Origin: an uncultured Verrucomicrobiae bacterium | GTDB taxonomy: Bacteria > Verrucomicrobiota > Verrucomicrobiia > Limisphaerales > UBA8199 | Reading direction: 5' to 3' | Assembly (NCBI GenBank): GCA_963809845.1 | Contig: CAWELO010000014.1 | Location: 157,307-221,306, forward strand | DNA: 64,000 nucleotides | Shown here: one piece after another, positions 4,798 to 50,304 of the stretch | How the letters are laid out: the number at the start of each line of letters is the position of its first letter | Numbering within the stretch: position 1 is the stretch's first letter | Notes under the pieces: model-generated | The model's database searches: none | What the model was told of the DNA's origin: nothing | Seen by the model: only the letters and a program-made list of their open reading frames with translations | Position numbers and translations under genes: made by a program

Positions 4798-5676
4798 TCA
4801 GGCCAGTCGCTTTGCCCGCAGATGCAGTTCGTCCAGGACGGTTTGCAGCAGCGCGGAGACCTTTCCGCGCCACAGGGCGCCTACGATCACGGGGGGAAAA
4901 TCAGCCTTGGGCAACGGGAGCGCCTGGACGTTCGGGGGGAGCACCGCCTTGGGCACCAGGACAGACAGGCCAATCCCGAGTCCGTGGCTGACGTAGGTTT
5001 CGACGAGGTCGATGGAGCTCACTTCGATGCTGGTAAACCAATCCACGCCCAGCCGGGCCAGCCCCTGTTGAAAATGACGGCAGATCGTCTCGGCCTCGGG
5101 GAGGCAGATCAACGGCTCGTCGATCCGGTCTCGCTTCCACAGTTGCTCCGGAGCGGCCACCCCGCTGCCTTTCTCGACCAGCAGCGTCAAGGGCAATTCG
5201 AGCAAGGCAGCCGTATGAATGCCCGGGGCGGATTTCTTTTCGATCAATGTCACGGCCAGGTCGATCTCCTCCTTCTGCAGCAGGCCTTCCAATTCGGCCT
5301 GATACCCTTCGCGCAACGCCATCCGCAAGGCGGGATACCGTTTCCGCAGGCTGTGGAAGAACTCCGGAAAGTGATCGCGCAGGACAATGGTCGAGGCGCC
5401 GATCCGGATCTGGCGCGTCTGGCCGCCCTGCAAATCACTGGCCATGGCGTCCAGCCCTGAAAAGAAGGGATGAATGAAGCGGTAGAGCTTTTCCCCCGCG
5501 GGGGTCAGCAGGAAGGGCCGGCGCTGGAACAGCGTCACGCCGAGGTGCGCCTCCAGTTGGGCGACCTGTCCGCTGACGGCCGGTTGCTGGATGCCATAAG
5601 GAATATTGCGCACCGCTTCCATGATGCCTCCGTGCTTCGCCACATAGTAGAACAGTTCCAGGTGATGAATGTTCAT
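4798..5676 (-). CDS. LysR-family transcriptional regulator
   Basis: Start chosen at MNIHHLELFYYVAKHGGIMEAVRNIPYGIQQPAVSGQVAQLEAHLGVTLFQR, the LysR wHTH. A periplasmic-binding-like effector domain follows. Confidence 0.85.
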   Translation of the reverse strand: MNIHHLELFYYVAKHGGIMEAVRNIPYGIQQPAVSGQVAQLEAHLGVTLFQRRPFLLTPAGEKLYRFIHPFFSGLDAMASDLQGGQTRQIRIGASTIVLRDHFPEFFHSLRKRYPALRMALREGYQAELEGLLQKEEIDLAVTLIEKKSAPGIHTAALLELPLTLLVEKGSGVAAPEQLWKRDRIDEPLICLPEAETICRHFQQGLARLGVDWFTSIEVSSIDLVETYVSHGLGIGLSVLVPKAVLPPNVQALPLPKADFPPVIVGALWRGKVSALLQTVLDELHLRAKRLA

Positions 5677-5809
5677 AATCAGGTGCCGTTTTGACCGAAT
5701 GCTCGACTCCCATCGCCGATGCAGGGTCGTAAATCCGGTCAACCTATGGCAAGGCTAATGTGGTTAGCGGGGCGCTCCGGTGACTTCCCTTGGTTCGTGG
5801 GGGTTCATC

Positions 5810-6077: not shown

Positions 6078-7547
6078 ATGTTTATCGTAATGGTCACACC
6101 GGAGTGCGCGCCGGCGGCCAAAGTTGGCGGCCTGGCGGACGTCGTGCAGGGGTTGTCCAAGGAGCTTGGACTGCGCGGCCACGCCGTGGAGATCATCCTG
6201 CCCAAATACGACTGCATGCGCTACGACCGCATCTGGGGACTCACCAAGTGCTACAGCGATCTCTGGGTCCCATTTTACCAGCATTGGATCCATTGCGATG
6301 TTTATTCCGGCTGGATGGACGGCCTGAAATGCTTCTTCATCGAACCCCACCTGGACCGCAATTTTTTTAACCGGGGCGTCTTTTACGGGCATCAGGATGA
6401 CGGCGAGCGCTTCGCCTTTTTCTGCCGGGCCGCGCTCGAGTTCATGCTCAAGACGAACAAGCACCCGGATATTATACACTGCCACGACTGGCAGACCGCG
6501 CTGGTGCCGGTGTTGCTTTACGAGATGTATCAGCAACTGGGCATGCGGCATTCCAGGGTTTGCTTTACGCTGCACAATGTTGGGCATCAGGGGATCAGTG
6601 GGGAGTTTTTGCTGCGGGCGGTCGGATTGAACCCCGCTCACCTTTTGAATCCGGATCGGTTGCTCGATGATCGCCACCGCGGGGCGATCAATCTGATGAA
6701 AGGCGGCATTGTGTATTCGAATTTCGTGACCACCGTCTCACCGCGATACGCCGACGAGATACGGTTTACCCCCCTGGGGATGGGCTTGCAGCGGATCTTG
6801 AGGGTGCACCACCAGAAATTTGGCGGTGTCCTCAACGGCATCGACTACGGGGTGTGGAACCCGGAATTGGACCCGCACATCGCCCGGCGCTATAGTATCG
6901 GGTCGTTGGACGATAAATATGCGAACAAGGAGGCGTTGCGGCATCGTTTGTGGCTGCGTCAGGGGATGAAACCGGTGGTGTCATTCGTCGGCCGTTTAGA
7001 TCCCCAGAAGGGGGTCGATCTGATTTTGCACGCGGTGCCCTATTGCCTCGAGCACGGCTGCCAGTTCGTGCTGCTGGGGTCGAGCTTGCAGGGTGACATC
7101 AACACCGTGTTCTGGAATTTAAAGTGGCGGTTTAACGACCACCCGGACTGTCATCTGGAAATCGGCTATAACGAAGAACTGGCGCACTTGATCTACGCCG
7201 GCTCCGATCTGATCCTGGTGCCCAGCGGATACGAGCCCTGCGGCCTCACCCAGATTATCGCGCTCCGGTACGGCACCGTGCCCGTCGTGCGAAACACCGG
7301 CGGGCTCGCCGACACCGTGTTCGACGCCAATTACGCCCCGAAGCCCTACCAAGAGCGCAACGGTTATGTGTTCAACGATTACAACTGGGCGGGGCTGGAA
7401 TCGGCGCTGCACCGGGCCATCGGCATGTGGCACCATTACCCGCAACATTTTCGCGAGCTGATGGCCAACGGCATGCGTTGCGACTATTCCTGGAACTACC
7501 CGGGACAGAACTATCTCAACATCTACAACCACATCAAAGCTCGGTGA
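6078..7547 (+). CDS. glgA: Glycogen/starch synthase (GT5, ADP-glucose type)
   Basis: 489 aa. The N-terminus MFIVMVTPECAPAAKVGGLADVV carries the KxGGL motif. It also has HCHDWQTAL and a C-terminal PSGYEPCGLTQIIALRYGTVPVVRNTGGLADTV. Confidence 0.95.
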   Translation: MFIVMVTPECAPAAKVGGLADVVQGLSKELGLRGHAVEIILPKYDCMRYDRIWGLTKCYSDLWVPFYQHWIHCDVYSGWMDGLKCFFIEPHLDRNFFNRGVFYGHQDDGERFAFFCRAALEFMLKTNKHPDIIHCHDWQTALVPVLLYEMYQQLGMRHSRVCFTLHNVGHQGISGEFLLRAVGLNPAHLLNPDRLLDDRHRGAINLMKGGIVYSNFVTTVSPRYADEIRFTPLGMGLQRILRVHHQKFGGVLNGIDYGVWNPELDPHIARRYSIGSLDDKYANKEALRHRLWLRQGMKPVVSFVGRLDPQKGVDLILHAVPYCLEHGCQFVLLGSSLQGDINTVFWNLKWRFNDHPDCHLEIGYNEELAHLIYAGSDLILVPSGYEPCGLTQIIALRYGTVPVVRNTGGLADTVFDANYAPKPYQERNGYVFNDYNWAGLESALHRAIGMWHHYPQHFRELMANGMRCDYSWNYPGQNYLNIYNHIKAR

Positions 7548-10500
7548 CGACATCCAGCCAGACGGTAACGGCGCAAACGGGCCTGAAGGTCGAGGCGCTG
7601 ATTTCCCGGCGAGACACCGGCCTCGAGGTTACCCTCAAGGCGCCGGCCGTGCCTCGCCTGCTTCTGCATTGGGGCTTGCGGCGGTCTGGTGCGGAGGCCT
7701 GGACGATACCGCCCCAGCCCGGCTGGCCTCCCGGGACCGTGGCCGCCGGCCCAGGTGCGTTGCAGACCCCGTTTGCCAAGATGGATGGCGAGGCCAGGCT
7801 CGTGATTCCGCTCAGCCCCGCTGACGATTACGCCGCGCTTGAGTTTGTCCTGTTTCTGCCGGACGAAGGACGCTGGGACAATAACAGCGGGCGCAATTAC
7901 CAAATTCCCCTCGGGGAGACGCCGGCCCCGGGCGCGAAACCGCTCGGAGTCCTGCGGGCGCAGGCGGGTTCGGAGGAGTCATTGCTGGACCGAGTCTTCG
8001 AGCTGGCGGGCGGAGGCCAGTTGGCGGTGGGTGTGGCCAAGGCCGGCGACCAATACCGGCTGCGCTTCGTTTGCGACCGCGCGCGACCACTCCTGCTCCA
8101 CTGGGGCGTGGCCCAGCGTTCGCCGCATGAGTGGCTGCTGCCGCCGGAAACCTCGCGTGGCAAGGCGGCAACCGTTTTTCATGACCAATCCGCGGAAACT
8201 CCGTTTTCACCGCAGGACGGTTTGAACACGCTCCTGCTGGGGTTTTCGGAACCTGAAGCCCCACTCGGGATCCAGTTTGTGTTGCGGGAAGGGCCGGAGG
8301 GCCGCTGGATCAATTACCGGGGCGGGAATTTCTACCTGCCGGTCAAGGTGCGCCAGGCAGCTATGGCCCACCCGGGCGCCCGCGAGCATGCGGACATCGC
8401 GGAGGAGATTGTGCGGGCGGAGACCACCCACAATTCCTGGACCCTGATGCACCGGTTCAACCTGTGTTACGACCTGCTCGACCGGGTCCGCGGCAGCCCC
8501 GATGGCTTGGCTCTGATTTATGTCTATTTGCGCTTTTCCGCCATTCGCCAGCTCACCTGGCAGCGCAACTACAATACCAAACCGAGGGAGCTGGCCCACG
8601 CGCAGGAACGCCTGACGCAGCGGCTCGCCGAGCTTTACCGCCAGGAGCCCGCCGGCCGGCCCCTGGCTCGCTTAACCCTTGCCACGGTAGGCCGGGGCGG
8701 CGAGGGGCAGCGCATTCGCGACGAGATCCTCAATATCATGCACCGCCACCATGTCAAGGAGGTGAGCGGTCATTTCCTCGAAGAGTGGCACCAGAAACTC
8801 CATAACAACACGACCCCCGATGACGTGGTGATTTGCGAGGCCTACCTGGCTTTTCTGAAGAGCAATGGTGACCAGGATACGTTCTATCGCACGCTCGAAG
8901 CGGGCGGGGTTACCCGCCAGCGCCTGGAGAGCTTCGAACGCCCGATTCGCAGCCATCCTGACTTCGTCCCGCACCTGAAGGACGCCCTCATTAATGATTT
9001 CAAGAACTTTCTAAAAATCCTCAAAGCCAGCCATTCCGGAACAGATCTCGAGACCGCGATCCAAGCCGCCCGAAGCCAGCTGGATGGAGACTTGCAGGGT
9101 CGGCTGAACCAGGTCTGGGAGCAACGCAACGCCCCTCCGGAGCGCGCCCTGGATCTCGTCCGGCAGATCACCGAGGCGCGCCGCCGATTATCGAGTTCAT
9201 TCAACCGAACCGGCGGATTGCGCGAGTTGCTTTACCTCGATTTGGCTCTGGAACAACTGCTGCGCGCCATCATCGAGCGGAACATCCATTTGCCTTTCGG
9301 CGGTGACCCGTTGGTGGACTTCATCGGCTGCGTTCTGGAGAACCTGACCTTGTCCTACGAAGAACCCGAGCTGGCCGCGTGCTCGAGGCATTGGGAACGG
9401 CTTCGATCCCTGCCGCGTTTTGGCGACGCGTGGTCGCTGCATGCCAAATCCGTGCTCGACCGCGCCGCCCGGGCGCTCGGCGCGTGGATTGACCACTTTT
9501 ACCAACTCTTGCAACCCAAGGCGGAGCTGCTCGGCGGGGGTTTTAAAGCCGAGTCCTGGACGATCACGCTGTTCAGCGAAGAGGTGGTGCGCGGCAGCAG
9601 CCTGGGGTTTGCGCTTTCGGGTTTGTTGCGCCACTTGGATCCGGTCTTGCGCCGGGCGGCCCACATTGGGAATTGGCAGATCATCAGCCGCGGTCGTGGG
9701 GCGGGGCGGGTTGAGGTGGTCGAGGCCTTGAGCTCGGTCCAGGGCCGCCGGTTCGACGGGCCGAGGGTTATTGTCGCCGACCGTGTGACCGGGGAGGAGG
9801 AGATCCCGGACCAAGTGACCGCGGTGATCGCTCCGGATGTGGTTGATATGGTCTCCCACGTGGCGGTGCGCGCCCGCAATGCCGGCGTGCTCTTTGCGTC
9901 GTGCCACGATCCGGAGCTGTTCCAGCACCTGAAATCCCTGCAGGGCCGGCAAGTCCACCTCGAAGTGAGCGCTGCCGGTGATGTTCTGGCTGCCGAGGGC
10001 ATGGGAGAAACCGCCACGCAACCTCCGGCACACGAGCCTCAACGGCTGAGTCTTCCCCAGCGATCCTTCACCCGCTACGCCATTCCGTTCTCCGATTTTA
10101 CTGAACACCTGGTCGGTGGCAAAGCGCTGCACCAGGCTGAACTGCGAAAGCGGTTGCCGGACTGGATTCACCAGCCGGCCTCCGCCGCGCTGCCCTTTGG
10201 CGTGTTCGAGCGCGTGTTGAGCTTTGAGTCGAACCGCAGCGTCGCGAAACGCTATCTCGAGCTGGCCCGGCAGACCGCCTCGACGGGCACGGAACCGCTG
10301 GCGGAGCTCAGGCAAGCCATCCTTTCACTCCAAGCCCCCGCTGAGTTGATAGAGGCCCTGCGCGCGGCGATGGCAGCGTCCGGGCTCGCCTGGCCTGACG
10401 ATTGGGAGACGGCCTGGACGCGGATCAAACAGGTTTGGGCTTCCAAGTGGAATGACCGCGCGTTTCTCAGCCGCCAGCGTATCGGTTTGCCCCACGACTC

Positions 10501-11032
10501 GCTCTTTATGTCGGTTCTCGTCCAGCAGGTCGTGCCGGCTGAATACGCTTTCGTGATCCATACCGTGAACCCCTCCAATGGGAATCGTGGTGAACTCTTC
10601 GCCGAAGTGGTGCTGGGTCTGGGTGAAACGCTGGTCGGCAATTACCCCGGTCGAGCGCTTGCGTTCGTGTGGAACAAGGAAACCCTGCAACCGCGCCTGC
10701 TCTCGTTTCCGAGCAAGAGCGTGGGTCTGTATGGTGAGGGCCTGATTTTTCGGTCGGATTCCAACGGCGAGGATCTGGCCGGCTACGCGGGGGCGGGCCT
10801 GTATGACAGCGTTTTGCTCAAAGAACCGCGGCGTGTTGAGCTGGATTATTCGAACGAGCGGCTGGTCTGGGATGAGTCCTTTCGCCAAAACCTGTTTGCC
10901 AGCATCGCCCGCATCGGCCAGGAGTTGGAGCGCGCCACCGGGTCACCCCAGGACGTCGAAGGCGCCCTCACCGGCAGTGACTATTACGTCGTGCAAACTC
11001 GACCGCAGGTGGGTCTCGATGCGCATGAATGA
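7544..11032 (+). CDS. Alpha-glucan,water dikinase (GWD)-like enzyme with two CBM45-like N-terminal repeats
   Basis: Start taken at GTG 7544, overlapping the glgA TGA as GTGA. No ATG lies downstream in frame near the glgA stop. Two N-terminal repeats contain LLLHWG (7658-7675 and 8090-8107) and RWDNNSGRNYQIPL / RWINYRGGNFYLPV. The phosphohistidine motif is DMVSHVAVRARNAGVLFASC (His codon 9857-9859). The C-terminus reads WASKWNDRAFLSRQ...YAFVIHTVNPSNG...GLGETLVGNYPGRALAF...FRSDSNGEDLAGYAGAGLYDSV...SPQDVEG...YVVQTRPQ, which closely matches my recollection of plant GWD1 (potato R1). Confidence 0.85.
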   Translation: MTTSSQTVTAQTGLKVEALISRRDTGLEVTLKAPAVPRLLLHWGLRRSGAEAWTIPPQPGWPPGTVAAGPGALQTPFAKMDGEARLVIPLSPADDYAALEFVLFLPDEGRWDNNSGRNYQIPLGETPAPGAKPLGVLRAQAGSEESLLDRVFELAGGGQLAVGVAKAGDQYRLRFVCDRARPLLLHWGVAQRSPHEWLLPPETSRGKAATVFHDQSAETPFSPQDGLNTLLLGFSEPEAPLGIQFVLREGPEGRWINYRGGNFYLPVKVRQAAMAHPGAREHADIAEEIVRAETTHNSWTLMHRFNLCYDLLDRVRGSPDGLALIYVYLRFSAIRQLTWQRNYNTKPRELAHAQERLTQRLAELYRQEPAGRPLARLTLATVGRGGEGQRIRDEILNIMHRHHVKEVSGHFLEEWHQKLHNNTTPDDVVICEAYLAFLKSNGDQDTFYRTLEAGGVTRQRLESFERPIRSHPDFVPHLKDALINDFKNFLKILKASHSGTDLETAIQAARSQLDGDLQGRLNQVWEQRNAPPERALDLVRQITEARRRLSSSFNRTGGLRELLYLDLALEQLLRAIIERNIHLPFGGDPLVDFIGCVLENLTLSYEEPELAACSRHWERLRSLPRFGDAWSLHAKSVLDRAARALGAWIDHFYQLLQPKAELLGGGFKAESWTITLFSEEVVRGSSLGFALSGLLRHLDPVLRRAAHIGNWQIISRGRGAGRVEVVEALSSVQGRRFDGPRVIVADRVTGEEEIPDQVTAVIAPDVVDMVSHVAVRARNAGVLFASCHDPELFQHLKSLQGRQVHLEVSAAGDVLAAEGMGETATQPPAHEPQRLSLPQRSFTRYAIPFSDFTEHLVGGKALHQAELRKRLPDWIHQPASAALPFGVFERVLSFESNRSVAKRYLELARQTASTGTEPLAELRQAILSLQAPAELIEALRAAMAASGLAWPDDWETAWTRIKQVWASKWNDRAFLSRQRIGLPHDSLFMSVLVQQVVPAEYAFVIHTVNPSNGNRGELFAEVVLGLGETLVGNYPGRALAFVWNKETLQPRLLSFPSKSVGLYGEGLIFRSDSNGEDLAGYAGAGLYDSVLLKEPRRVELDYSNERLVWDESFRQNLFASIARIGQELERATGSPQDVEGALTGSDYYVVQTRPQVGLDAHE

Positions 11033-11129: not shown

Positions 11130-14100
11130 ATGCTCTACATCGGCAACCAGACCTCCTGCTGGACGCCCGCGCCTGCGGAGCCGTTTGATTATGCCTTGGC
11201 GCAGGGGTTCGACGCCTTCGAATGGTTTCCGGACAAGAAGCCCGAGGGCGGATGGGATGACGCCGATCTCGATGGCCCGACTCGGACACTGATCCGGGAA
11301 CGTGCTCGCGCCCTGGGGGTGCGCCTGTCGGTTCATGCCCGGTGGCAAGCCAGCCCATTTTCGTCTGAGGGGTATGCGCTCCTGTGGAACGATCTGGAAC
11401 TAGCGCGAGACCTCGGGGCCGCCCTGTTGAATATCCACTTGTCGCACGAACAAGGCGTTGAAGCGTTCATCCATGCCCTTCGACCGTTGATCGAAAGAAC
11501 GGCTCAAACAGGTCTGCAGCTTGCCATCGAGAACACGCCGCTCCATTCACCTGAAGACTTCAACGAATTCTTCGGCCGGCTCAAGCAGGCCATGCCGATC
11601 AACGCCGCCCACGTGGGGATGTGCTTTGACCTCGGACATGCCAATTTGTGCGCCGCCACGCGCAACGATTACCTGAAGTTCTACGATCGACTTGCCTCGC
11701 AGGTGCCGGTTATCCATCTCCATTTCCACGAAAACTGGGGCGATTCGGATTCACACCTGCCACTCTTTACCGGTCCGGCCGCGCGGGACGACGCCGGAAT
11801 CCGCGGCTTGCTGGACCGGCTCCGGCGGCGAACGTTCGAGGGATCGGTCATTCTCGAACAATGGCCCACTCCCCCGTCGCTTCTGGACCAGGCGCGAGAT
11901 CGCCTGCTGCAGTTGTGGAGTGTCGAGGTGAAGACGGGAGCGCCCGTCGAGCCTGTGGTCGCTTCGGCTTCGGTCCCAGAAAAATCCGTCGCCCCCAAGC
12001 CGAGGGAGGAAGCGGCGGCTCATCCCGGCGACCCTCCGCTCGAGGAGGGGAGGGACCAAGGCCGAGGATCAGCGGCTACCGCCACGGCCGAATCTGGCCG
12101 GGCGCCGGGGGCCGCCGCCACGTCCGACGAGTTTATCGGCCGGCTGACCACTGGAAACCAGCGCGCTCGTAGCTGGCGTGAGAAGCTGGATTTGGTGCTC
12201 CACCTTTTGACCGATGGAACGCATCCGATTGCCGCGGAGGGCTTGATCGATCTTGCCATTTACCTGCGATTCCTCGGGACCGGCGAGATCCCCTGCGTGG
12301 AAGACGGGCGGCACTTCCGTCCGGCGAGTCACGCCCGGATTTCCGCTCAAATCCAGGAGGGTCTGGGGCGCGTGACGGGCAATGGAAATGAATTCATCGT
12401 GCGCCGGATTTGGCCCTGGCTGCCTTCCGCCGCGCCCGCCTTTCAGCGCCCGGAGCCTCTGACCCGGATTCGGGACATCGCGCACCGGAACGACATCGAT
12501 CCAGATCTGAAGCGAGAGCTCAAAACGACGCTTCAGAACAAGCTGCACCGCTGTGCCGGGCCGGAGGACCTGGCCACCTCCTCGGCTATTCTGCGGCGCA
12601 TTACCGCTCCGGGCGCCGCGTATTCGCCGGGCTTCGTCGAACAATTCAAGATCTTCCACGAGGAGCTCAAGGAGTTCTTTAACGCGCAATCGCTGGATCA
12701 ACGCCTCGAAGAACTTAAGCCGTCGGCCTCTCCGAGCCAGAGGGAACGGATCGAAGGGTTCCTGCGTGGACGACACGGCAAAACGGTCCCGGAGCAGTTG
12801 GCGGCCCTGCGGCTGCTGACCACGTTGCGTGGGGCACTGCTTCCTGCCGGCAAGCCGCCCGCCGCGGCCCCAACCCAGCCTCATATCCTGGCCGATGTGG
12901 CCCTCGAAGGTTTTGCGTTTGTACTGCTCAGCCAGATCATCAACGGCTCTGAATCCCTGGTATCGGAACAAGGCCGGAAATCTCAGATCGAGGCGCTCAG
13001 CCTGGCCTTGGACAACCTGGTGTTCAGTGGTATCGAGGTGTCCGAATCCCAGGCCCTGGCCCACGAACTTCGCGAATTCACATCCTCGAAGGTTGCACCA
13101 CTCGAGGGCGCGGTCGCGCGGCGTGCGGCCGCGGTCAGAGGCCCGTTCCTCCCTCCCGGCAGCCCATCTGCCCGCGCTCGATCCCCGCGATGATTTGCTC
13201 CGATTCAAAGCCAGCTTGTTGCGCGCTCGCCGCCTGGCGGACAGCTTCAGTGAACGAATCCTGGCGTTGTTTGGGGGCCGGGCGGAACAGCTTGGCCGGG
13301 CTTTGGGGGTGGCCGATCATGCGATTCGGGTTTTCTGCGAATCCGAACTTCGTGGACACCTCGTTTTTCAGATTTCGAAGCTGGTTTCGAGTTTGCTGCG
13401 TCAGGTTCGAACCGAGCTTCGCGCCTCACCTTGGGATGTGCTGGTGGCCGGGCGCGCGCTCGGGCGGCTTACCACCGTCGATACTTTGGATCAACTCCAA
13501 CCGGTGCCCGGCGAATCGATCATCGCGCTGCTCCAGCAGGCGGCGGGGGACGAGGAAATGCCGAAGAACCTGACCGCGGTGCTGCTGGCGCACGAGCTCC
13601 GCACCTTTCGCACTTGGGCGTCCGCGCCCGTCAAGCCGGCGTGGTGTTTGCCACCTGCGAGGAGCCGCGGGAATGGGACCGTCTGCGCGAGCTCGCAGGC
13701 CAGACCATTTCCGTCAACGCCCTTCCCGATGCGGTGACCTGGGAGATCGCCATCGCTCCCAAACCGCCCCTTGCCGAAGCGCCGCGCCGCCGGCCTCGAA
13801 TCCCTTCCATTCGCCTGAATCCCGAGGCCGCCTGGTTCCCGCTCGAACGGGCAACCCCCGAGACGACCGGCGGCAAGGCCAATGCCGCCCGCCGGTTGGC
13901 CGAACTCGCGCGCACGTCGCCGGGTTTCCACACGCCCCGCTCGCTGGTCGTCCCCTTCGGTGTCCTGGAGCAAACCTTGAGCACCGTCCCGGGAGTGGCG
14001 GCGGAATATCGAGCTTTGAAGGAAGGAATCAACGGGCTCCCGCTCCGAGGCGATCCCCGCCCGAGCCCAAAAGCTGCGCGATTGCCTGGAAAAGCTGGCC

Positions 14101-14802
14101 GTGCCACCGGCGATCGGTTCTGAGATCACCCATCAGTTTTCTTCCGAGACCGCGCTGATCGTTCGCTCGAGCGCCAATTGCGAGGATCTCGAAGGTTTTG
14201 CGGGCGCCGGCCTCTACGAATCGGTCCTCAACGTGCCGGCTTCGGAGGTGGGCCCAGCGATCCGGGCGGTGTGGGCTTCGCTCTGGACCGATCGCGCAAC
14301 GCTCAGCCGCCGCGAGGCGGGCATCCCTCACGAGCAGGCCCATATGGCGGTGCTGATCCAGGAATTGTTGGATCCCGATTTGTCCTTTGTGCTGCACACG
14401 GTCAATCCGCTGACCTCGAATGCGCGGGAGCTGTATGCTGAAATTGTGGTGGGCTTGGGCGAGACGCTTGCCTCCGCGGCCACCCGCGGCAATCCCTATC
14501 GGTTGGTAAGTCACAAGGACTCCGGCGCGGTAACCACCTTGGCCTTCGCCGACTTCAGCCAGGCATTGCACCCCAAGGCCGGAGGCGGCTTGCGCCGGGA
14601 AACCGTGGACTACGCGGCGATCGATCTCAGCCGTTGTTCGGAGGCTCGGCAGCGGCTGGGCGCGCAGTTAGCTTCAGTTGGGGCCGCCGTCGAGCGCGCC
14701 TTCGGCGGGCCGCAGGACATCGAAGGAGTCGTGGTCCAGGGTCGAGTTTATCTTGTCCAAACCCGCCCCCAGCAGGGATTATCGCGCCGAGAGCCAAAAT
14801 GA
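11130..14802 (+). pseudogene. Xylose-isomerase-fold TIM barrel fused to a phosphoglucan,water dikinase (PWD/GWD3)-like enzyme; reading frame broken three times (~13.10-13.18 kb, ~13598, ~14048)
   Basis: Frame 0 (11130-13193) holds the TIM barrel (LAIENTP, CFDLGHAN, IHLHFHENWGDSDSHLPL), a Pro/Ala linker and the GWD-type middle region (LIDLAIYLRFLGTGEI). The sequence continues in ORF 12829-13737 (DDLLRFKASLL...AVLLAHEL). It then continues in ORF 13431-14123 (PHLSHLGVRARQAGVVFATCEE; His codon 13611-13613). It ends in ORF 14101-14802 (IVRSSANCEDLEGFAGAGLYESV...VWASLWTDRATLSRR...SFVLHTVNPL...GLGETLAS...TLAFADFS...PQDIEGVVVQGRVYLVQTRPQ). The PHLSHLGVRARQ, SFVLHT and TLAF-NFS motifs match my recollection of plant PWD. 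Confidence 0.8.
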
Positions 14803-15914
14803 AAACCGTGCTTCCCACCGGGGTCAAAACGCTGGCCCTTTTTGAAAAGCGCTTCGAGGGCGACGACGCCCTGTTCGAGTTGGCCCGGCGGCGTTTCCTC
14901 AAAGCCGGCATGGGAGCGGAAATGCACGCCGGCACACCGGAGCAGTTGCAGTCGCTCTTGAAGTTCCGGCCGGGGCAAGAGGCCCCGCTGGTGGTCCATC
15001 TGCCGCGCGATTTCAATCTCATCGACGGTTCGAGCCCCGGGAGGATCCTGGAGCTGGCCACCCGGTTCGCCGGTCAAATCCATGGCCTGGTGATTCACGA
15101 TCACCCCACGATCGCCACGCGCCGTGCGGAATATGTCGCGGCTGCCTGGAAACTGGATGACCAGTTCGAGAAGATCGAGGGCTGCCCGATGCTGTTTGTG
15201 GAATACGCCGCCGGGGTCGAGCCGGGAGAGTTCGCCGGGTTCTTTGCCGAAATCCCCGACCTGGAGCACCTGAGCGCCTGCATCGATATCGGGCATGTGG
15301 GGATTCGCGCCGCGCAAGCGGACTACGCTCGAAAGCACGGGGGCGACGATATCTTCCTCTTGAAGGCTCAGGGCCCGAGGCTGCCACAGGTCATCGCGGA
15401 AGTGCAAGCTTCGGTGGCCGCAGGGGTGGCGGAGGTTTTGGAACTGATCCAGGCGCTCTCCACGCTCCGCAAGCCCTTCCACTTTCATTTGCACGACGGC
15501 CATCCGCTTTCGACGTTCAGTCCTTTCGGGGTTTCCGATCACTTGAGCTTCTTCAGCGAGATTCCGCTGAACTTCGAGCACGAGGGCCGCCGGACTGTGC
15601 CGGCCATGTTCGGGCCAGGGGGCCTGGCCAAGGTGGTCAGCCGGGTCCTCGGGTTCATGATCCCCGAGCGCGTTTCTTTTACCCTCGAAATTCATCCCAC
15701 CGGCGAACGCTTGCCCCCGGGGGCGGAGTCCTCCTTATTTGACCACTGGACCGACAAGACCAATGCGGAGCGCATGAACCACTGGATCGAGCTGCTGAGC
15801 CGTAATCGCGCACTGTTGCGCCAGACCATTGATTCAGCCCTCGCACTCAAAAACCCTCAACCGCTTATCCCGGCACCACCGGTCGAGATGGAGAGTGGAG
15901 CCTGCGACATTTGA
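14799..15914 (+). CDS. Xylose-isomerase-like TIM-barrel protein (AP endonuclease 2 / sugar-phosphate isomerase-epimerase family), paralogous to the N-terminus of the preceding gene
   Basis: Start at MKTVLPTGV, with an ATGA overlap on the upstream stop (14799-14802). Motifs are LVIHDHP, LFVEYAAG, ACIDIGHVG and FHFHLHDGHP...VSDHLSF. The equivalent fused-domain motifs are IENTP, FDLGHAN and HLHFHEN...DSHLPL. Confidence 0.75.
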   Translation: MKTVLPTGVKTLALFEKRFEGDDALFELARRRFLKAGMGAEMHAGTPEQLQSLLKFRPGQEAPLVVHLPRDFNLIDGSSPGRILELATRFAGQIHGLVIHDHPTIATRRAEYVAAAWKLDDQFEKIEGCPMLFVEYAAGVEPGEFAGFFAEIPDLEHLSACIDIGHVGIRAAQADYARKHGGDDIFLLKAQGPRLPQVIAEVQASVAAGVAEVLELIQALSTLRKPFHFHLHDGHPLSTFSPFGVSDHLSFFSEIPLNFEHEGRRTVPAMFGPGGLAKVVSRVLGFMIPERVSFTLEIHPTGERLPPGAESSLFDHWTDKTNAERMNHWIELLSRNRALLRQTIDSALALKNPQPLIPAPPVEMESGACDI

Positions 15915-15954: not shown

Positions 15955-17135
15955 ATGCGAACGATTTCTCACGCTCTCGTCCTGAATCTCCATCAACCCC
16001 TGGGCAATCTCGAAGCCCTGCTCGAGACCAAGGAATGGGAGGCTAAGGAAATCCTTTTTGCCATGGATCGCATCCCGCGTTCTCTTTGGGGCTATGAAGA
16101 TGTCGGGCGGGTGCACCTCGCTCTTTCGGGAACGCTATTGGAAACCCTCTCGCGCTCCGACTTCCAGGAACGCGTGTATGGGATCGTGAAATGCGGCGAT
16201 CTGCTGTGGCACCTGCAAAATGACCGCGCTCTGCAGGTGCTGGGCACCGGTTATTACCATCCCGTTTTGCCTCTGATACCCGCGGAGGACTGGCAGGCGC
16301 ATTTAGAGCGCTGGCAGGGCATCGCGCGGCACTTGTTTTGGCGCGCCCGCTTCCCCGGCTTCTGGCCGCCCGAGATGGGCTTTTGCATGGAGCTCATCCC
16401 GCTGCTCAAACGGTTGGGCTATGAATATGTGCTGGTGGACAGCCAGCATGTCGCACCCGTCACCCCCATGCGTTGGGAGGAAATCCGCTACCGTCCGCAT
16501 GTCGCCCGCCATGGCGGCGAGGAGATCATCGTCGTGGTCCGGGATCGTGAACTCTCCGACGCGCAAGAAGCGGGGATGGATACCGGCTGGTTCATGCACG
16601 AGGTGCGCGAGCGGACCCGGTTTTGCGACTTCCCCCCGCTGGTCACCACTTGCAGCGACGGCGACAACGGCGGCTGGTTCCGCAACCTCTCCGAAAAGGG
16701 CAACTTTTGGGGGGTATTCTATTCAGCCGTTGCTCGAACGGGTGCGGCGGGGTGAAACCGAAGTGCGTCCGGTTTTCATTGACGAATACCTTCGGGGCCC
16801 ACGGCGCGCATGGCGAGGTGCGCGTGCAGACCGGGGCTTGGAACACCGGCTGGCACAGTGGCTTCGGCTTCACTCAGTGGACGGGCACCCAGGTACAGAA
16901 GGACGCCCTGCGGCGGCTCGCCGAAACCAGCCGTGCCTTCCACGAGGTGGCGCAGGCCACCGGGGGAGCCGGAAGTGGAAGTCCGGACAGCCGCCGCCGG
17001 CTCGAAGAGGCCCATTGGCGCCTGCTCCGAGCCGAGACGAGCTGCAATTTCTTCTGGGGCGAGGCCTGGGTGCCGCGCTGCCACGCGGATCTCGATCAGG
17101 TCTGGGCCATCCTGAATGGCCTCAACGCGAGGTGA
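15955..17135 (+). pseudogene. Glycoside hydrolase family 57 protein, two +1 frameshifts (~16714 in a G6 run, ~16799 in a CCC run)
   Basis: MRTISHALVLNLHQPLGN (the HQP motif), GTGYYHPVLPLI, FWPPEMGF and TTCSDGDNGGWF. The protein then continues in the next frame as YSIQPLLERVRRGETEVRPVFIDEYLRG. The third frame follows with HGAHGEVRVQTGAWNTGWHSGFGFTQWTG...NFFWGEAW. Confidence 0.8.
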
Positions 17136-17218: not shown

Positions 17219-18577
17219 TTACGGCCCATTCCGGACGCTATAAAAGGCCGCGCCTTTGGCCGCGGCGTTGGCGTCCGATATACGCACGAGTGTGCCGGGG
17301 CTGTTGGTCGTGAGCAGCACGGCCCACGAGCTCAGCGGCAAGCCGCAGTTGGTGGTCGAGACCACGGTAAGCATCTGCCCGGGGACCGTCGCAATATCGA
17401 ATCCAAAAGCGCTCCCGCTCCACCCGGGATTTGAGACCACTGGCAAGGGACTCACGCCGCCCGCGGTGATTAAACTCAGCTTGGTGGAGGTGGCACGGTA
17501 GGCCACGGTCGCATAAACCGAATTACTGGCCCATGCGCCGTGATAAAAACCCACGCTGAGGTCGTAGGTCGAGTTCGGCAGCAGAGTTCCGGCTGGGATG
17601 ATCACGGAAGTTGCCGTTCCGTTCAACGCGCCGGGGGTTAGGATGTCGCCGCTGCTCCAAACGTTGCTGGCCGATCCGACTATGACGCTAATGTAATCCG
17701 CTGTGCCGCCCCCGACAAAAGGGTCCCAGGTGATTGTGAACGGCTTGGTTGCATCCACGGCCTGGGCCGCCGCATAGTTTGAAACGTGGGGGGCGTTCGG
17801 CTGGGCGATCGTGCTGGGCAACGAGACCGCAACGGTTTGGTTGGAGGTCGAAGCCATCACGTCAAAACTGTAGTTTCCTTCCGGGTACGCCGCCTCGAGC
17901 ACGTTGGAATCGACCGTGAAATAGAAGAAATAGTACGTCTCGTGCTGCACAAAGTTCTGGGTTAGGTTCGTAACGGCGCTTGAAGGCGAGGTCAGTGTGA
18001 TGGCGGTAGCCGTCCGGTTCGACGCCAGGGTGACCGAAGCGCCGAAGGCAAACGGAACATTTGTCATCAGCGATGGCGCCGCGGCCGAGTTTTGCTCGTA
18101 GGAATATATTTTTCCCACGTTGAAGGTGGTAATTCGATTGGTGCCCGAACCGGAAGTCGTGCCGCCTCCCCCGCTGCCCGTCGTGAAGGAGCCCGTGGGG
18201 ATGCCACCCAACGGGGTGCTATCGGCGGCTTGACCGGAAACGGCCCACGTGAGCGATTTGTTGGAGGGAAAGGCCGGACTGGGGGTGCAGGTCAGGACGG
18301 TGCCCGCCGCGTTCCAGTCCTGGATGGTGGTCAAGGGACCCGTTGGATTCGAGATATCGATGAAAAAGGCCGTGGTGGCATTCGTATCCATTGCCCCGCT
18401 GAAGGTAAAAACCACCGCCGCGCTGGGCGAGACGCCGGTCGCCCCATTGGGCGGCACCATGGAACTGATCGTGACCTGGGCCTGCGCGCCCGCACCGCAA
18501 AGCCCCAGCCAAAGGAGGGCCAGGATGGCGGCCCGGCCGGCCCGAATTGAAAACCGAAGAAATGCGTACCCATTCAT
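17219..18577 (-). CDS. Secreted Ser/Thr-rich protein with an N-terminal Ig-like (SbsA/Big_5-type) domain and a C-terminal FYR-type tail
   Basis: Start at MNGYAFLRF. Signal peptide is AILALLWLGLCGAGAQAQ. Then VTISSMVPPNGATGVSPSAAVVFTFSGAMD. The C-terminus reads GSAFGFDI...SSWAVLLTT...AAFYSVRNGP. Confidence 0.7.
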   Translation of the reverse strand: MNGYAFLRFSIRAGRAAILALLWLGLCGAGAQAQVTISSMVPPNGATGVSPSAAVVFTFSGAMDTNATTAFFIDISNPTGPLTTIQDWNAAGTVLTCTPSPAFPSNKSLTWAVSGQAADSTPLGGIPTGSFTTGSGGGGTTSGSGTNRITTFNVGKIYSYEQNSAAAPSLMTNVPFAFGASVTLASNRTATAITLTSPSSAVTNLTQNFVQHETYYFFYFTVDSNVLEAAYPEGNYSFDVMASTSNQTVAVSLPSTIAQPNAPHVSNYAAAQAVDATKPFTITWDPFVGGGTADYISVIVGSASNVWSSGDILTPGALNGTATSVIIPAGTLLPNSTYDLSVGFYHGAWASNSVYATVAYRATSTKLSLITAGGVSPLPVVSNPGWSGSAFGFDIATVPGQMLTVVSTTNCGLPLSSWAVLLTTNSPGTLVRISDANAAAKGAAFYSVRNGP

Positions 18578-20603: not shown

Positions 20604-21723
20604 TTAGCCCTTCCGCATCAGGAACAGAAACTCTTTGTTCTTCTCGCGCGCATCATTGACCCACTCGTTGGTCCAGCGCATCTCCGCCATGACATTCCGC
20701 TGGTAATCGATCTCGATCACTTCGAGCAACTCGCCGACCGATGCAATCGCGGCGTTTAGTTCCTGAGCGGTAGCCCGCCCGCCGGAGCTGTAGGAGAGGA
20801 GGATGTGCTTTGCCCGGGTTTCCCGCAGGAGGCGCTCAATGGCTTCAACGACGACAAATCGCCCGGCGGGGCTGCGGCGAAAGTCCTCGAAAGGCGAATA
20901 GGCGACGCGGTCAGAGCTGTCTTCTCTGCGGTTGGCTTTGCCAAACACCCCCGGACGGTCGTTGAGGCAAATGGAAGTCCACAGATGGTAGTACGCGGCG
21001 TAGCGGACGCGCGAAGGCGGCATCTTCTCGTTGTTCGAGCCGTACGGCGGGTCAAAGTAGGCCAAATCCACGTCCACCGTCGGAACGAGGTCGAAGATGT
21101 CCCCTTGGTGAACACTATGCCGTCCCACGCTCTGGAAAAGCCGGGGGACTTTCAAATGGATTTTGCGGTACGAGCGATCCGACCAGGCGCCCAGGTAGGA
21201 GGCAAAGTGCCCGAGCGTGCTGTCCACCACATCCATCGCGAGGATCAGGCTGGTGAGCAAAACCGCCCGCTCAAGCGGGGCGAGGGGCAGGCGGTCAATC
21301 GCTTCGCGGATGGCGTCGAGTTTGCGGGTATTGTGGGTTTGCCAGGGCCGTTTGACCGCGCCGCCGCCGGCAGCCTCCGCGCCGTAATGCTCGGTAAACC
21401 AACCGTCTGTTCCGGGGAGGGCGTTGAGGTGATCCACGAGCGGCTGATAGTGCTCGGGCGGGTGCGGGTTTAGGAGGTAGCAGGTCCCGAAGATTTTTGA
21501 CCACATGGCTAGGTCGTTCGCGACGACGGAGATACCCCGATTGTGCCAGCGCCTGGGAGACGCGGGTGCTTCCCGAGAAGCCGTCGAGCACCGTTTTGGG
21601 ATTGACCCGGTGCACGAGCCGGAGGAGGTGCGGGAGCAGCTTGAGCTTCGAGCCAATGTATTTGACGCCTTCCGTTGGCGGCGCGCCAACGACGGGTATT
21701 CGCGGTTTCGTTGTGGCGTTCAT
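20604..21723 (-). pseudogene. D12-class N6-adenine DNA methyltransferase, one frameshift at ~21535 (GGGG run)
   Basis: The N-terminal frame gives MNATTKPRIPVVGAPPTEGVKYIGSKLKLLPHLLRLV...LDGFSGSTRVSQALAQSG. The protein continues in ORF 20604-21689 as ISVVANDLAMWS...DLAYFDPPYGSNN (DPPY motif IV)...ILLSYS. Confidence 0.75.
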
Positions 21724-22054
21724 TCGGTTGCGGACCGGCGGGCTCACGCCCTGGTCGCCAGCGAGGAGACAGCCTGCGTCCGAGCCGGGCGGCTTGCACT
21801 AAGAAAATTGGCGTGCTGCCGCCTGGCCGCCTGGCCCGAAGCGCCACGTTGTTCAACCACCTGGTGGCTGGGCGGAGGCGAGCCGCCCGCCGCCCGGGTT
21901 CGATCCAGGCGGAATCATCCACTCGATTAGGCGAAGTTCAATCTAACGTGGGCGGATTGAATCCTCGCGCGCGGCGGGATAAACTAAACTGAACAGGCGA
22001 GTGGGTCATGAAACATGGAACGGTCGCGCGATCCAAACTGGAAAGGGTAGGAAT

Positions 22055-23320: not shown

Positions 23321-25072
23321 TCATCGTGCCAAAAACGGATACGCCGCGCTGTCGTGGGTCAGCTTGCTCCACAGCCGCTCGAGAACATCCCCACAGGGCG
23401 GCGGGGCGGCGCCCGCATAAGCCACCTGGGCGTAAAGGCGGCCAACTTGCCCAACTTCAGGATCGCAATCCGGAAACTGTTCACCAACCCGGCAGGCAAA
23501 CTCGAAGGGCGTCTGCTCGGGCTGCCGGCCACAGCCGCATCCCTCCGCCCAAGCCTCGAGGGCTTCAAAGGTGTAGATGATGAGGTCCCGAGCCGGCATC
23601 GCTGAAGCCTGCCCGGAGCTGAAAGGGTTGGAGAAGGCGGCGAACGGGCGGGGAGCGGACCGCCGGGGAACAGGCACGGACTGAACGGACGCGCTTGGCT
23701 TGGAAGCGAACAGGCCGTGCCAAAAATCCTGCAAAGCGCGCCAAAGCGTTTGGATGAGCACTGCCAGGTGATGCCGGTTCTTGATCAACAGGAAGAGCAG
23801 CAGCGCCAGCAAAACAGCGTAAGCAGCGGACTTGGGCCAATTCAGGGTGAGCCGGCTTGCCGGCGCGGGACTTGGGCGCGGCTGAACGGCCTGCCCGCCA
23901 GGACCCGAAACCCTGCCGCCACTCACACTTGGGTTTCCGCTCGGGTGGTTCTCCCCCCCTCCGGTCCGCCCGGCGGCGGGTTTTTCGCCGGCCGTATCGT
24001 CCCGGGATGTCGCCACCTGCCGTGCCCGGTCGTCGGGGGTGGCGCCTGGCTGTTCGCCGGCGGTTTCTGATTGGGGATTCGCCTTTTCCGCGAAGTAGGA
24101 ATTGGTGGACTCCCGCGTGGATCGAGAGCGTGGATCGCCGAACCGGTCCATCAGGGAGCCAAACGACCAGGTGGCATTGGGACGTGGCAACAGGATGCAG
24201 GTCACCAATATGGCCAGACCCAAGGTCGAGCCCAGGCTGATCCAAGCCGCCGAGACGGCTGGTGGCATGACCAGTTGGCGCTGCCGCAGGTAACGGCGCA
24301 GGCCCAGGAAGCTGGTCAGCAGCAGCAGGCCCAGGGCCGAGGCGAGGTAAACGACAACGAAAAGAAAGGCGCGCGCTCGCGCGGCCGGATCGGAGGAGGG
24401 GAGGAGACTCTGGCCAAGGCCAAAGATGGGGAGCGCCGCGAGTGAGAAATAGATCACCCACAGGCCGGGGGCGTGCGGTTCGGTGGCGGCTTTGGGTTTG
24501 GGGCGGTAGAGCAGCTTCCACCAAGGCGGCTTGGCGGACGCGGACCTGGCGTGGCCGTCCGGGTTTGTGGGAGCGGTGCCATCCGGGGTGTCCCCGGCCG
24601 GAACGGCTGAAGCGGCGCGGGGAATATCCAGTTTGGCCGCTTGCAGCAGCCCCTCACCCGAGGCGTCCGCTTCCTCATCGATGACCGTGCAGTCCCAGGT
24701 CAGTTTGTTCGTGGCCCACCAGATCAGACCGAGGATGCACCAGGCGCCGAGGTAGTTGTCGATGTATTGCGTGAGGACAAAGGCCGTGGCGGCAGCCAAC
24801 CCGAGGCCGTAAATGCCGGCGTGGTCGTAGCCCTTTTCGATGGCGATGCGCGACACCAGGACCATGGCCAGCACGAACCAGAAGAGCGTCCAGCGCAGTT
24901 TCGCCAGGTGCGACCCGGCATAGCCGATTTCGATGAGAAAGAACACGAACGTGCCGACCACCAGCATGATGAGGATCGGGCAGACCGCGATGGCCGCGTA
25001 ATCGGCCAGCGTTTTGGCCGGTCGGAAACGAGGCAACGGCTGCAGAAAACTCCTGGGTGCGGGCGGGCTCAT
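23321..25072 (-). CDS. Multi-pass membrane protein with a C-terminal DUF4129-like domain (third gene of the MoxR operon)
   Basis: The second Met gives an ATGA overlap with the DUF58 stop (25072-25069). It has several TM helices and a long Pro/Gly/Ala-rich linker. The C-terminus is LIIYTFEALEAWAEGCGCGRQPEQTPFEFACRVG...LYAQVAYAG. Confidence 0.7.
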   Translation of the reverse strand: MSPPAPRSFLQPLPRFRPAKTLADYAAIAVCPILIMLVVGTFVFFLIEIGYAGSHLAKLRWTLFWFVLAMVLVSRIAIEKGYDHAGIYGLGLAAATAFVLTQYIDNYLGAWCILGLIWWATNKLTWDCTVIDEEADASGEGLLQAAKLDIPRAASAVPAGDTPDGTAPTNPDGHARSASAKPPWWKLLYRPKPKAATEPHAPGLWVIYFSLAALPIFGLGQSLLPSSDPAARARAFLFVVVYLASALGLLLLTSFLGLRRYLRQRQLVMPPAVSAAWISLGSTLGLAILVTCILLPRPNATWSFGSLMDRFGDPRSRSTRESTNSYFAEKANPQSETAGEQPGATPDDRARQVATSRDDTAGEKPAAGRTGGGENHPSGNPSVSGGRVSGPGGQAVQPRPSPAPASRLTLNWPKSAAYAVLLALLLFLLIKNRHHLAVLIQTLWRALQDFWHGLFASKPSASVQSVPVPRRSAPRPFAAFSNPFSSGQASAMPARDLIIYTFEALEAWAEGCGCGRQPEQTPFEFACRVGEQFPDCDPEVGQVGRLYAQVAYAGAAPPPCGDVLERLWSKLTHDSAAYPFLAR

Positions 25073-50019: not shown

Positions 50020-50304
50020 AGCGCCGGTCCGGGCTATCACCTGTTGGATCCTGGCGGCGGCAACGGGGTGAAACCAAGGCTCCTGCTGGACGCCCTGATC
50101 GAGCCGGCCGCCTGCCTCCCGGTGGAGGTCTCGGGTGAACAGCTCGTCGCTTGCGCCAGCCAGCTCGCGCGCGAACACCCCCGGCTCCGGGTTCCGCCGC
50201 TCCGCGCGGATTACACCCGGGAGTTCGAACTCGCCGACTTGCCTGCGAACGGAGCGCGGCGCGCGGTGGACAGCGGGAGGCATCCCTGCCACACTTTTCC
50301 CGCA

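Follow-up and report, generated by a model that had tools for sequence, protein, structure and literature searches.

A bacterial alpha-glucan, water dikinase and its gene cluster as a possible counterpart of the plant starch-phosphorylation cycle

The 64,000-nucleotide stretch of DNA from an uncultured Verrucomicrobiae bacterium presented above (hereafter the window; all coordinates are window positions) contains, at 7544–11032 on the + strand, a gene whose domains and motifs show it to encode a true alpha-glucan, water dikinase (GWD) family protein, bacterial and full-length. The gene is part of a cluster whose order, all on the + strand, is glgA, GWD, DIK2, TIM2 and a GH57-family gene; DIK2 encodes a TIM barrel, TIM1, fused to a PWD-like dikinase. 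In plants, GWD and PWD together with SEX4 and LSF2 carry out a reversible cycle of starch phosphorylation (PMC6243121, PMC5578133). By analogy, we propose that the cluster encodes a bacterial version of that cycle, a reading to which we assign a probability of about 0.7. Three features of the cluster are new here, as follows: the linkage of GWD to TIM1, which has the metal ligands of endonuclease IV; the fusion of TIM1 to DIK2, which has a PWD-like ATP domain; and the presence of TIM2 after it. The core of the cluster recurs across several bacterial phyla. A literature search for a characterised bacterial GWD found none, only a passing mention in Cenci et al. 2018, and our analysis suggests that bacteria widely possess an as yet unstudied counterpart of the cycle by which plants phosphorylate starch.

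The GWD gene and its cluster

The GWD reading frame is open from 7427 to 11032, and its product has 1162 residues if the GTG at 7544 is the start (residue numbers below refer to this product unless another protein is named). That GTG shares the sequence GTGA, 7544–7547, with the TGA stop of the upstream neighbour, glgA. The gene is intact, and a protein identical to its product (100% identity and coverage) is already in public databases. Pfam assigns to it PF23166 twice (E 9.3e-44), PF22973 (E 3.1e-34) and PF01326, PPDK_N (E 2.4e-24). A GWD-specific central helical domain, residues 298–706 (8435–9661, +), was recognized by phmmer against the PDB, with matches to 9ha9_A (E 6.2e-88) and 9qvi_A (E 2.4e-87). 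Both entries, of which 9ha9 is potato GWD, are titled “Alpha-glucan water dikinase, chloroplastic”, and the matched segment is their central domain. Matches such as those to 9ha9 and to the PF22973 profile, GWD1_pHisD, far exceed chance.

The PF22973 match marks the phosphohistidine (swivel) domain, 9671–9988 (+). It holds the loop SHVAVRARN, at residue 771 (nucleotide 9854), with the predicted catalytic His772 encoded by nucleotides 9857–9859. The loop, SH.(A/S)VRARN in general form, is kept in the GWDs of cotton, a glaucophyte, red algae and green algae. A preliminary description of this DNA had set SHVAVRARN beside a plant loop SHVSVRARN, and both loops read as claimed, the latter in cotton GWD1. 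The C-terminal ATP-binding domain of the PPDK_N type, 10154–11029 (+), contains the segment RSDSNGEDL.GYAGAGLYDSV in the relocated position typical of GWD. After the histidine loop the motifs run, in order, WASKWNDRA, YAFVIHTVNPS, GLGETLVGNYPGRALAF, FRSDSNGEDLAGYAGAGLYDSV, SPQDVEG and VVQTRPQ. The motifs and their order (WASKWN, GLGETLVG, then RSDSNGEDL.GYAGAGLYDSV) are those of cotton GWD1, whereas the order in DIK2 and PWD differs. All of the motifs quoted in the preliminary description were found in the expected place, and each C-terminal pattern also fits cotton GWD1.

BLASTP and profile searches matched plant, algal and bacterial GWDs and recovered the GWD domains of Pfam. Alignment with cotton GWD1 covers 1079 positions at 40.5% identity, and the GWD of the glaucophyte Gloeochaete is 43% identical to the window GWD over the full length. 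Identity is 37–43% over about 1000 residues for the cotton, glaucophyte, red algal, green algal and ciliate proteins, and 31% for that of a gregarine. The last 330 residues had been described as nearly collinear with plant GWD; they are indeed nearer to it than to generic PpsA, identity being 49.7% with cotton GWD1, 52% with a glaucophyte GWD and only 22–25%, in partial stretches, with E. coli PpsA. No obvious signal peptide was seen in the window GWD. In a scan of NCBIfam, the nearest models were rifamycin phosphotransferase and phosphoenolpyruvate (PEP) synthase, all far below their cut-offs; the PEP-synthase models score 58–68 bits against cut-offs of 598–883. NCBIfam has no model for the GWD family, and this is why the NCBI name is “PEP/pyruvate-binding domain-containing protein”. 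The name “alpha-glucan, water dikinase” has already been given to relatives by JGI.

The N-terminus consists, by profile and alignment, of two adjacent CBM45 modules, for which binding of starch or another alpha-glucan is predicted. Two repeats had been described at about 7600–7910 and 8010–8350; we place module 1 at residues 14–126 (7583–7921, +) and module 2 at residues 148–269 (7985–8350, +). Both match PF23166, “Alpha-glucan water dikinase 1 Ig-like N-terminal domain”, the best stretch in module 2 being residues 150–266, and the same profile also matches cotton GWD1 twice. Module 1 has the conserved positions LLLHW, W..P and RW.N.G.N and is 34.5% identical to cotton CBM45-1 (cotton residues 133–214; E 1e-9 to 2e-12). 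Module 2 is collinear with cotton CBM45-2 inside a long alignment of residues 127–1156 with cotton residues 409–1471. In cotton GWD1, the first PF23166 stretch, residues 98–214, lies just past the transit peptide, and the second was located at about residues 431–551 by BLAST with the window repeats. These positions agree with the published locations of CBM45-1 and CBM45-2 (PMC6243121). In an alignment of both window repeats, both cotton modules, and the glaucophyte and Picocystis sequences, the tryptophans of HW, (E/K/D)W and (R/K/Q)W are invariant. The shared profile and the three tryptophan positions thus support the CBM45 identity that had been proposed for the repeats, CBM45 being a CAZy family typified by the modules of GWD and AMY3, with their conserved aromatic residues. 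According to a 2025 preprint there is no structural information for CBM45 (PMC12458248). Our own single-sequence AlphaFold2 model of residues 1–299 was poor (predicted local distance difference test, pLDDT, 45.6; beta strands only) and was unused for fold comparison.

The first gene of the cluster, glgA (6078–7547, +), encodes an ADP-glucose-type glycogen/starch synthase of family GT5 (Pfam Glyco_transf_5, E 1e-68; NCBIfam GlgA NF001905, 861 bits with a cut-off of 560). The last, at 15955–17135 (+), encodes a putative glucan-active enzyme of family GH57 and has two frameshifts; the Pfam match to Glyco_hydro_57 (E 1.3e-18) was obtained on the orthologue from a related locus, L023, and the product has a weak PDB match to the GH57 4-alpha-glucanotransferase 1k1w. 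The GTGA overlap of glgA with GWD and an ATGA overlap of DIK2 with TIM2 point to translational coupling within the cluster.

GWD relatives are encoded in 187 stretches that a pattern scan recovered from the GTDB species-representative genome collection. From these, 80 loci were retrieved, and 76 of the 80 have room downstream of GWD for synteny to be counted. A TIM gene lies directly 3′ of GWD in 61 of the 76: it is stand-alone in 32, fused or adjacent to DIK2 in 26, and cut by contig ends in 3. Among the retrieved loci, TIM2, GH57 and glgA are often near GWD, and in at least four phyla DIK2 sits next to GWD in the operon. The family is large, with more than 2000 database proteins at E ≤ 1e-10 (scored candidates, 90% clustering). 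The top 120 database matches are 58–100% identical to the window GWD, and the few that bear a taxon name are mostly from Verrucomicrobia or Verrucomicrobiota. Nearly all of the 80 loci are labelled as metagenome-assembled genomes (MAGs), from Verrucomicrobiota, Nitrospirota/Thermodesulfovibrionia, Desulfobacterota, anammox Planctomycetota, Myxococcota and others. The “PVC-like” host (that is, of the Planctomycetes–Verrucomicrobia–Chlamydiae group) of the preliminary description therefore agrees with the named closest relatives, and the organism is probably a verrucomicrobium, of a soil type, but the family is not confined to that group, as it occurs in at least five phyla.

The strong likeness to plant GWD is the sole point in favour of another origin, namely that the gene comes from eukaryotic contamination or a chimeric contig. 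The base composition argues otherwise. The G+C content of the gene (0.634), its third-position value (0.758) and its codon usage (r 0.93) match those of the window’s LigA, MoxR, M13 peptidase and OPT transporter genes, and G+C content is uniform along the whole window. The gene overlaps a bacterial glgA and is flanked by genes for NAD-dependent LigA, MoxR and prepilin-type proteins. Relatives occur in the 187 species-representative stretches, and among the 80 loci the synteny recurs many times, in dozens of independent MAGs. Contamination and chimerism are ruled out by these observations, their probability being negligible, and the comparison with neighbouring genes that the preliminary description had proposed speaks for a native bacterial gene.

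The second dikinase and the two barrel proteins

DIK2 (11130–14802, +) encodes an endonuclease IV-like TIM barrel, 11130–11939, fused to a PWD-like glucan dikinase. In the window assembly it is interrupted by three frameshifts; in L005 and L023, loci of relatives about 71–72% identical, an intact open reading frame of 1270–1274 residues occupies the same position, at 13467–17291 in L023. The L023 protein has the Pfam domains AP_endonuc_2 (a xylose isomerase-like TIM barrel, N-terminal), GWD1_pHisD and PPDK_N. No CBM20 was found by Pfam in this orthologue, and for that reason we call DIK2 PWD-like and not a canonical PWD. For comparison, plant PWD fragments were fetched with a bait sequence; the top match was 95% identical to the bait, and the named PWDs included those of Cocos and Phalaenopsis. 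The ATP domain of DIK2, 14101–14799, is 50–54% identical to the C-terminal fragments of plant PWD over about 220 residues, versus 30% for the window GWD.

The placement of one segment distinguishes the two dikinases. In DIK2, in an Auribacterota protein and in plant PWD, but not in GWD, the sequence VRSSAN.EDL..AGAGLYES precedes VWAS. In all GWDs, bacterial and eukaryotic, the equivalent segment comes after GLGETLVG (10748–10813 in the window GWD versus 14150–14215 in DIK2). The relocation seems to set GWD proper cleanly apart. In neighbour-joining (NJ) trees GWD is monophyletic in 100/100 bootstraps, and in one NJ tree DIK2 and PWD form a clade in 178/200.

There are six apparent frameshifts in the window, five of them within 4 kb: three in DIK2 (about 13075–13185, about 13597 and about 14037–14100) and two in GH57 (about 16722 and about 16796). 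The sixth is in one of two genes for D12-class N6-adenine DNA methyltransferases, that at 20604–21747 (−); the other is at 51459–52436 (+). GWD, glgA, TIM2, LigA, the M13 peptidase gene and the OPT transporter gene are intact. At one frameshift site a short run of C appears to have lost one nucleotide, and another site adjoins a TTTTGGGGGG run. No stop codons were seen in the frame-corrected aligned stretches of DIK2 and GH57, and the shifted segments are as conserved as the intact orthologues are to each other. Assembly error appears likelier than recent inactivation of DIK2 and GH57.

We use TIM1 for the barrel encoded directly after GWD, whether as a stand-alone gene or as the N-terminus of DIK2, and TIM2 for the product of the separate gene after DIK2. 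An alignment of 57 TIM1 sequences has nine invariant residues, H69, H103, E134, D167, H170, H198, D207, H209 and E243. The nine metal ligands of E. coli endonuclease IV (Nfo) we take to be H69, H109, E145, D179, H182, H216, D229, H231 and E261. These nine residues were confirmed in the K-12 sequence, and they align one-to-one with the invariant TIM1 columns. The epimerase YcjR, used as a control of the same fold, retains E, D, H, H and E at five of the nine positions and has no equivalents of the other four. In a profile search of the PDB, TIM1 matches MJ1311, of unknown function (E 1.5e-11), endonuclease IV (E 0.005) and a ketose 3-epimerase (E 0.87).

The TIM2 gene, 14799–15914 (+), encodes a divergent endonuclease IV-like TIM-barrel protein, and its ATG overlaps the DIK2 stop (ATGA, 14799–14802). 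TIM2 is conserved, about 335–370 residues long, and follows DIK2 in nearly all fused loci. The L023 orthologue (17297–18400) has no match in Pfam or NCBIfam, and there is no PDB sequence match for TIM2. An alignment of 20 TIM2 sequences has the invariant residues H65, H98, E133, D161, H164, H226, H228, D231, H233 and E295. The comparison of TIM2 with the TIM1 family by hhalign gives a probability of 88.6% (E 2.7e-6), and by this measure TIM2 is a remote homologue of TIM1. The ligand set of TIM2 appears equivalent to that of TIM1, the first five residues by hhalign and the remainder as read from motifs. We infer that TIM1 and TIM2 are metal-dependent phosphoesterases.

A different assignment is that the barrels are isomerases or epimerases of sugars or sugar phosphates, handling a small-molecule product of glucan breakdown. 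The databases call the family “sugar phosphate isomerase/epimerase”, its Pfam family is that of xylose isomerase-like TIM barrels, and many of the top structural neighbours of TIM1 are ketose 3-epimerases, the best match having been deposited as “D-tagatose 3-epimerase-like”. Yet all nine endonuclease IV ligands are invariant in TIM1, whereas a bona fide epimerase, YcjR, is without four of them, and an equivalent set appears in TIM2 despite deep divergence. TIM1 also has a weak NCBIfam match to the phosphodiesterase CbiR, and fusion to a glucan dikinase would be hard to explain for an isomerase of small sugars. We regard the epimerase assignment as unlikely, though it deserves serious weight beside the phosphoesterase assignment.

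Proposed function, origin and surroundings

The cycle that we propose would run as follows. GWD would transfer the beta-phosphate of ATP to His772, as in plants, and from His772 to a glucosyl hydroxyl of an alpha-1,4/1,6-glucan, at C6 by analogy, with release of AMP and inorganic phosphate. The CBM45 pair would tether the enzyme to the polymer. The substrate would most likely be the cell’s own storage glucan made by GlgA, since GWD depends on ATP and lacks an obvious signal peptide, and its gene is probably co-transcribed with glgA. The PWD-like DIK2 would add a second phosphate. TIM1 and TIM2, with the trinuclear-metal ligands of the phosphoesterase endonuclease IV, are the best candidates for phosphoglucan phosphatases that would clear the phosphate so that degradation proceeds. 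Their relation to plant SEX4 and LSF2 would be one of functional analogy and not homology.

It might be argued that the GWD-fold dikinase acts on something else, such as a different polysaccharide or a starch fragment taken up by the cell. Related dikinase folds take diverse substrates, as the nearest (though sub-threshold) NCBIfam models illustrate, and the affinity of CBM45 modules is low even in plants (PMC6243121). However, GWD is overlap-coupled to glgA and clustered with GH57, the tryptophan positions of the plant starch-binding modules are kept, and the catalytic core is about 40–50% identical to that of plant GWD1. We consider a different substrate improbable and prefer the storage glucan.

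Several observations weigh against the proposed cycle. First, we infer the substrate, the C6 specificity and the phosphatase function alike from homology and gene context, and for the substrate this also leaves room for the alternative just discussed. Covalent phosphate is not an established component of bacterial glycogen, and a 2025 paper regards it as perhaps absent there (PMC13011383). A TIM gene is not found directly downstream of GWD in 15 of the 76 loci. Foldseek comparison of the TIM1 model, which is confident (pLDDT 95.3), with the PDB mixes phosphoesterases and ketose epimerases at similar TM-scores (MJ1311, the “epimerase-like” entry, 0.73; the apurinic/apyrimidinic endonuclease of African swine fever virus 0.71; epimerases about 0.58–0.71). 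Since Foldseek does not discriminate, we rely on the conservation of the ligands, with Nfo and YcjR as controls. The DIK2–PWD clade has only 18–44/100 bootstraps with another taxon sample and PpsA rooting; given that its support shifts with sampling and rooting (89% to 18–44%), DIK2 is named PWD-like and not an orthologue of PWD. Finally, if the frameshifts in DIK2 and GH57 were real, part of the cassette would be dead in this organism.

What makes the proposal worth pursuing is a large bacterial GWD family with operon partners that mirror the plant cycle: two dikinases and candidate dephosphorylating enzymes. Were the proposal true, reversible glucan phosphorylation would be a bacterial trait, and the barrels could be tested directly as candidates for a new class of glucan phosphatase. 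A defined set of bacterial sequences would then allow tests of where the two plant starch dikinases came from. The NCBI names “PEP/pyruvate-binding domain-containing protein” and “sugar phosphate isomerase/epimerase” would need correcting.

In the literature that was searched, GWD is taken to characterise eukaryotes that accumulate starch and to have originated together with the primary plastid. Cenci et al. 2018 state that GWD is otherwise known only in starch accumulators and treat the bacterial copies as incidental lateral gene transfer (PMC6260743). We built an NJ tree from simple corrected distances over 819 core columns, rooted with DIK2, and used rare indels as extra characters. An Auribacterota sequence is basal in 97/100 bootstraps, and a Margulisiibacteriota sequence comes next. 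The rest is a crown of the main bacterial clade and all eukaryotic groups, with low support inside; all eukaryotes group together in 8/100 bootstraps, all bacteria in 0/100 and the main bacterial clade in 14/100. The indels fit this tree: at the insertions, Auribacterota and Margulisiibacteriota agree with the outgroup, and a derived one-residue deletion at GGEG/GQRIR marks the main bacterial clade, being absent from the outgroup and from all eukaryotes.

Two proteins, P0248 of Auribacterota and P0255 of Margulisiibacteriota, are deep-branching bacterial dikinases with one CBM45 module each. P0248 combines its module with an unrelocated ATP domain of the PWD/DIK2 type, and it is apparently, or at least possibly, an intermediate architecture.

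How do these data bear on the view that bacteria obtained their GWD clade by lateral transfer from a eukaryote, an alga or a plant, and that it then spread among bacterial phyla, with the same function? Under that view, which was suggested in Cenci et al. (PMC6260743), the gene would say nothing about the origin of starch phosphorylation. Because eukaryotes lack the GGEG/GQRIR deletion, their GWDs did not arise within the main bacterial clade as sampled, as lateral acquisition would have it, and the weak deep nodes, with that clade monophyletic in so few bootstraps, leave it room. On the other hand, with the DIK2 root the earliest branches are bacterial and share the outgroup’s indel states, and an apparent intermediate, P0248, is found in a bacterium. 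Every TIM-fused DIK2 paralogue among the sequences examined comes from a bacterial locus, and it is DIK2 that plant PWD most resembles. That GWD and DIK2 are operon neighbours in several phyla, and that codon usage has no sign of recent import, also speak against acquisition from a eukaryote, which we find doubtful.

The deepest branches and the fused paralogue being bacterial argues against a simple eukaryote-to-bacterium origin. On the sequences available, a bacterial origin of the family seems somewhat more likely than transfer from eukaryotes to bacteria, but owing to the low bootstraps at key nodes we claim no direction of transfer. It is tempting to propose, though only tentatively, that the whole plant cycle is seen here in a possibly ancestral bacterial form, with metal-dependent glucan phosphatases of a new type and endonuclease IV fold, and that the Archaeplastida got both dikinases from such an operon rather than inventing GWD at the primary plastid.

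Other genes of the window can be mentioned briefly. A LysR-family regulator gene (4798–5742, −; Pfam HTH_1 and LysR_substrate) is divergent and upstream of glgA, any link with the cluster being conjectural. A row of genes for a MoxR AAA+ ATPase, DUF58 and DUF4129 proteins at 23321–27527 (−) is unrelated to the GWD cluster. An open reading frame for a LarA-like lactate racemase, 50044–51561 (+), has a short in-frame piece of Methyltransf_33 (histidine-specific methyltransferase) at its N-terminus, which may reflect a mis-set start or a fusion or frameshift with the upstream gene.

Comparison with known enzymes

The closest known counterparts of the window GWD are plant and algal GWD1 (potato R1, Arabidopsis SEX1; EC 2.7.9.4). 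The order of domains is the same, that is, CBM45, CBM45, central helical, phosphohistidine and ATP-binding, and both have the SH.(A/S)VRARN loop and the relocated RSDSNGEDL.GYAGAGLYDSV segment. Unlike plant GWD1, the window protein lacks a transit peptide, is shorter (1162 residues versus about 1400–1470), has the one-residue deletion at GGEG/GQRIR and is encoded in a bacterial operon beside glgA. Its CBM45 modules are about 20 residues apart, whereas in plant GWD1 about 220 residues with two DUF7067 repeats lie between them. The GWD of Gloeochaete wittrockiana (P0130, 1177 residues, from an MMETSP transcriptome) is like the bacterial proteins in being compact, with an adjacent CBM45 pair and no DUF7067. 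It has the eukaryote-type residue at the GGEG/GQRIR indel and is therefore not simply contamination from the main bacterial clade. With the superfamily of PEP synthase and pyruvate phosphate dikinase, the window GWD shares an ATP-grasp PPDK_N domain and the swivelling phosphohistidine mechanism, but it has no PEP/pyruvate-binding TIM domain, and identity is 22–25% over part of the ATP domain.

DIK2 is comparable to plant PWD/GWD3 (EC 2.7.9.5), with a collinear ATP domain at the identity given above (C-terminal PWD fragments only). Both have a histidine loop of the ELPHLSHLGVRARQ type and the unrelocated VRSSAN.EDL before VWASL(Y/W)T.RA. In place of the CBM20 of plant PWD, DIK2 has its N-terminal endonuclease IV-like TIM barrel.

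TIM1 and TIM2 resemble endonuclease IV in having a xylose isomerase-like TIM barrel with all nine metal ligands. They differ from it in their context, which is glucan metabolism and not DNA repair, and the sequence likeness is marginal (profile E 0.005); the nearest solved structure to TIM1 is that of the uncharacterised MJ1311. In their proposed role, the barrels would be like SEX4, LSF2 and laforin, which strip the phosphate added by GWD and PWD so that degradation continues (PMC5578133, PMC6243121). The latter are dual-specificity, cysteine-based phosphatases with CBM20 or CBM48, of another fold and chemistry, and the likeness to TIM1 and TIM2 would be one of analogy only.

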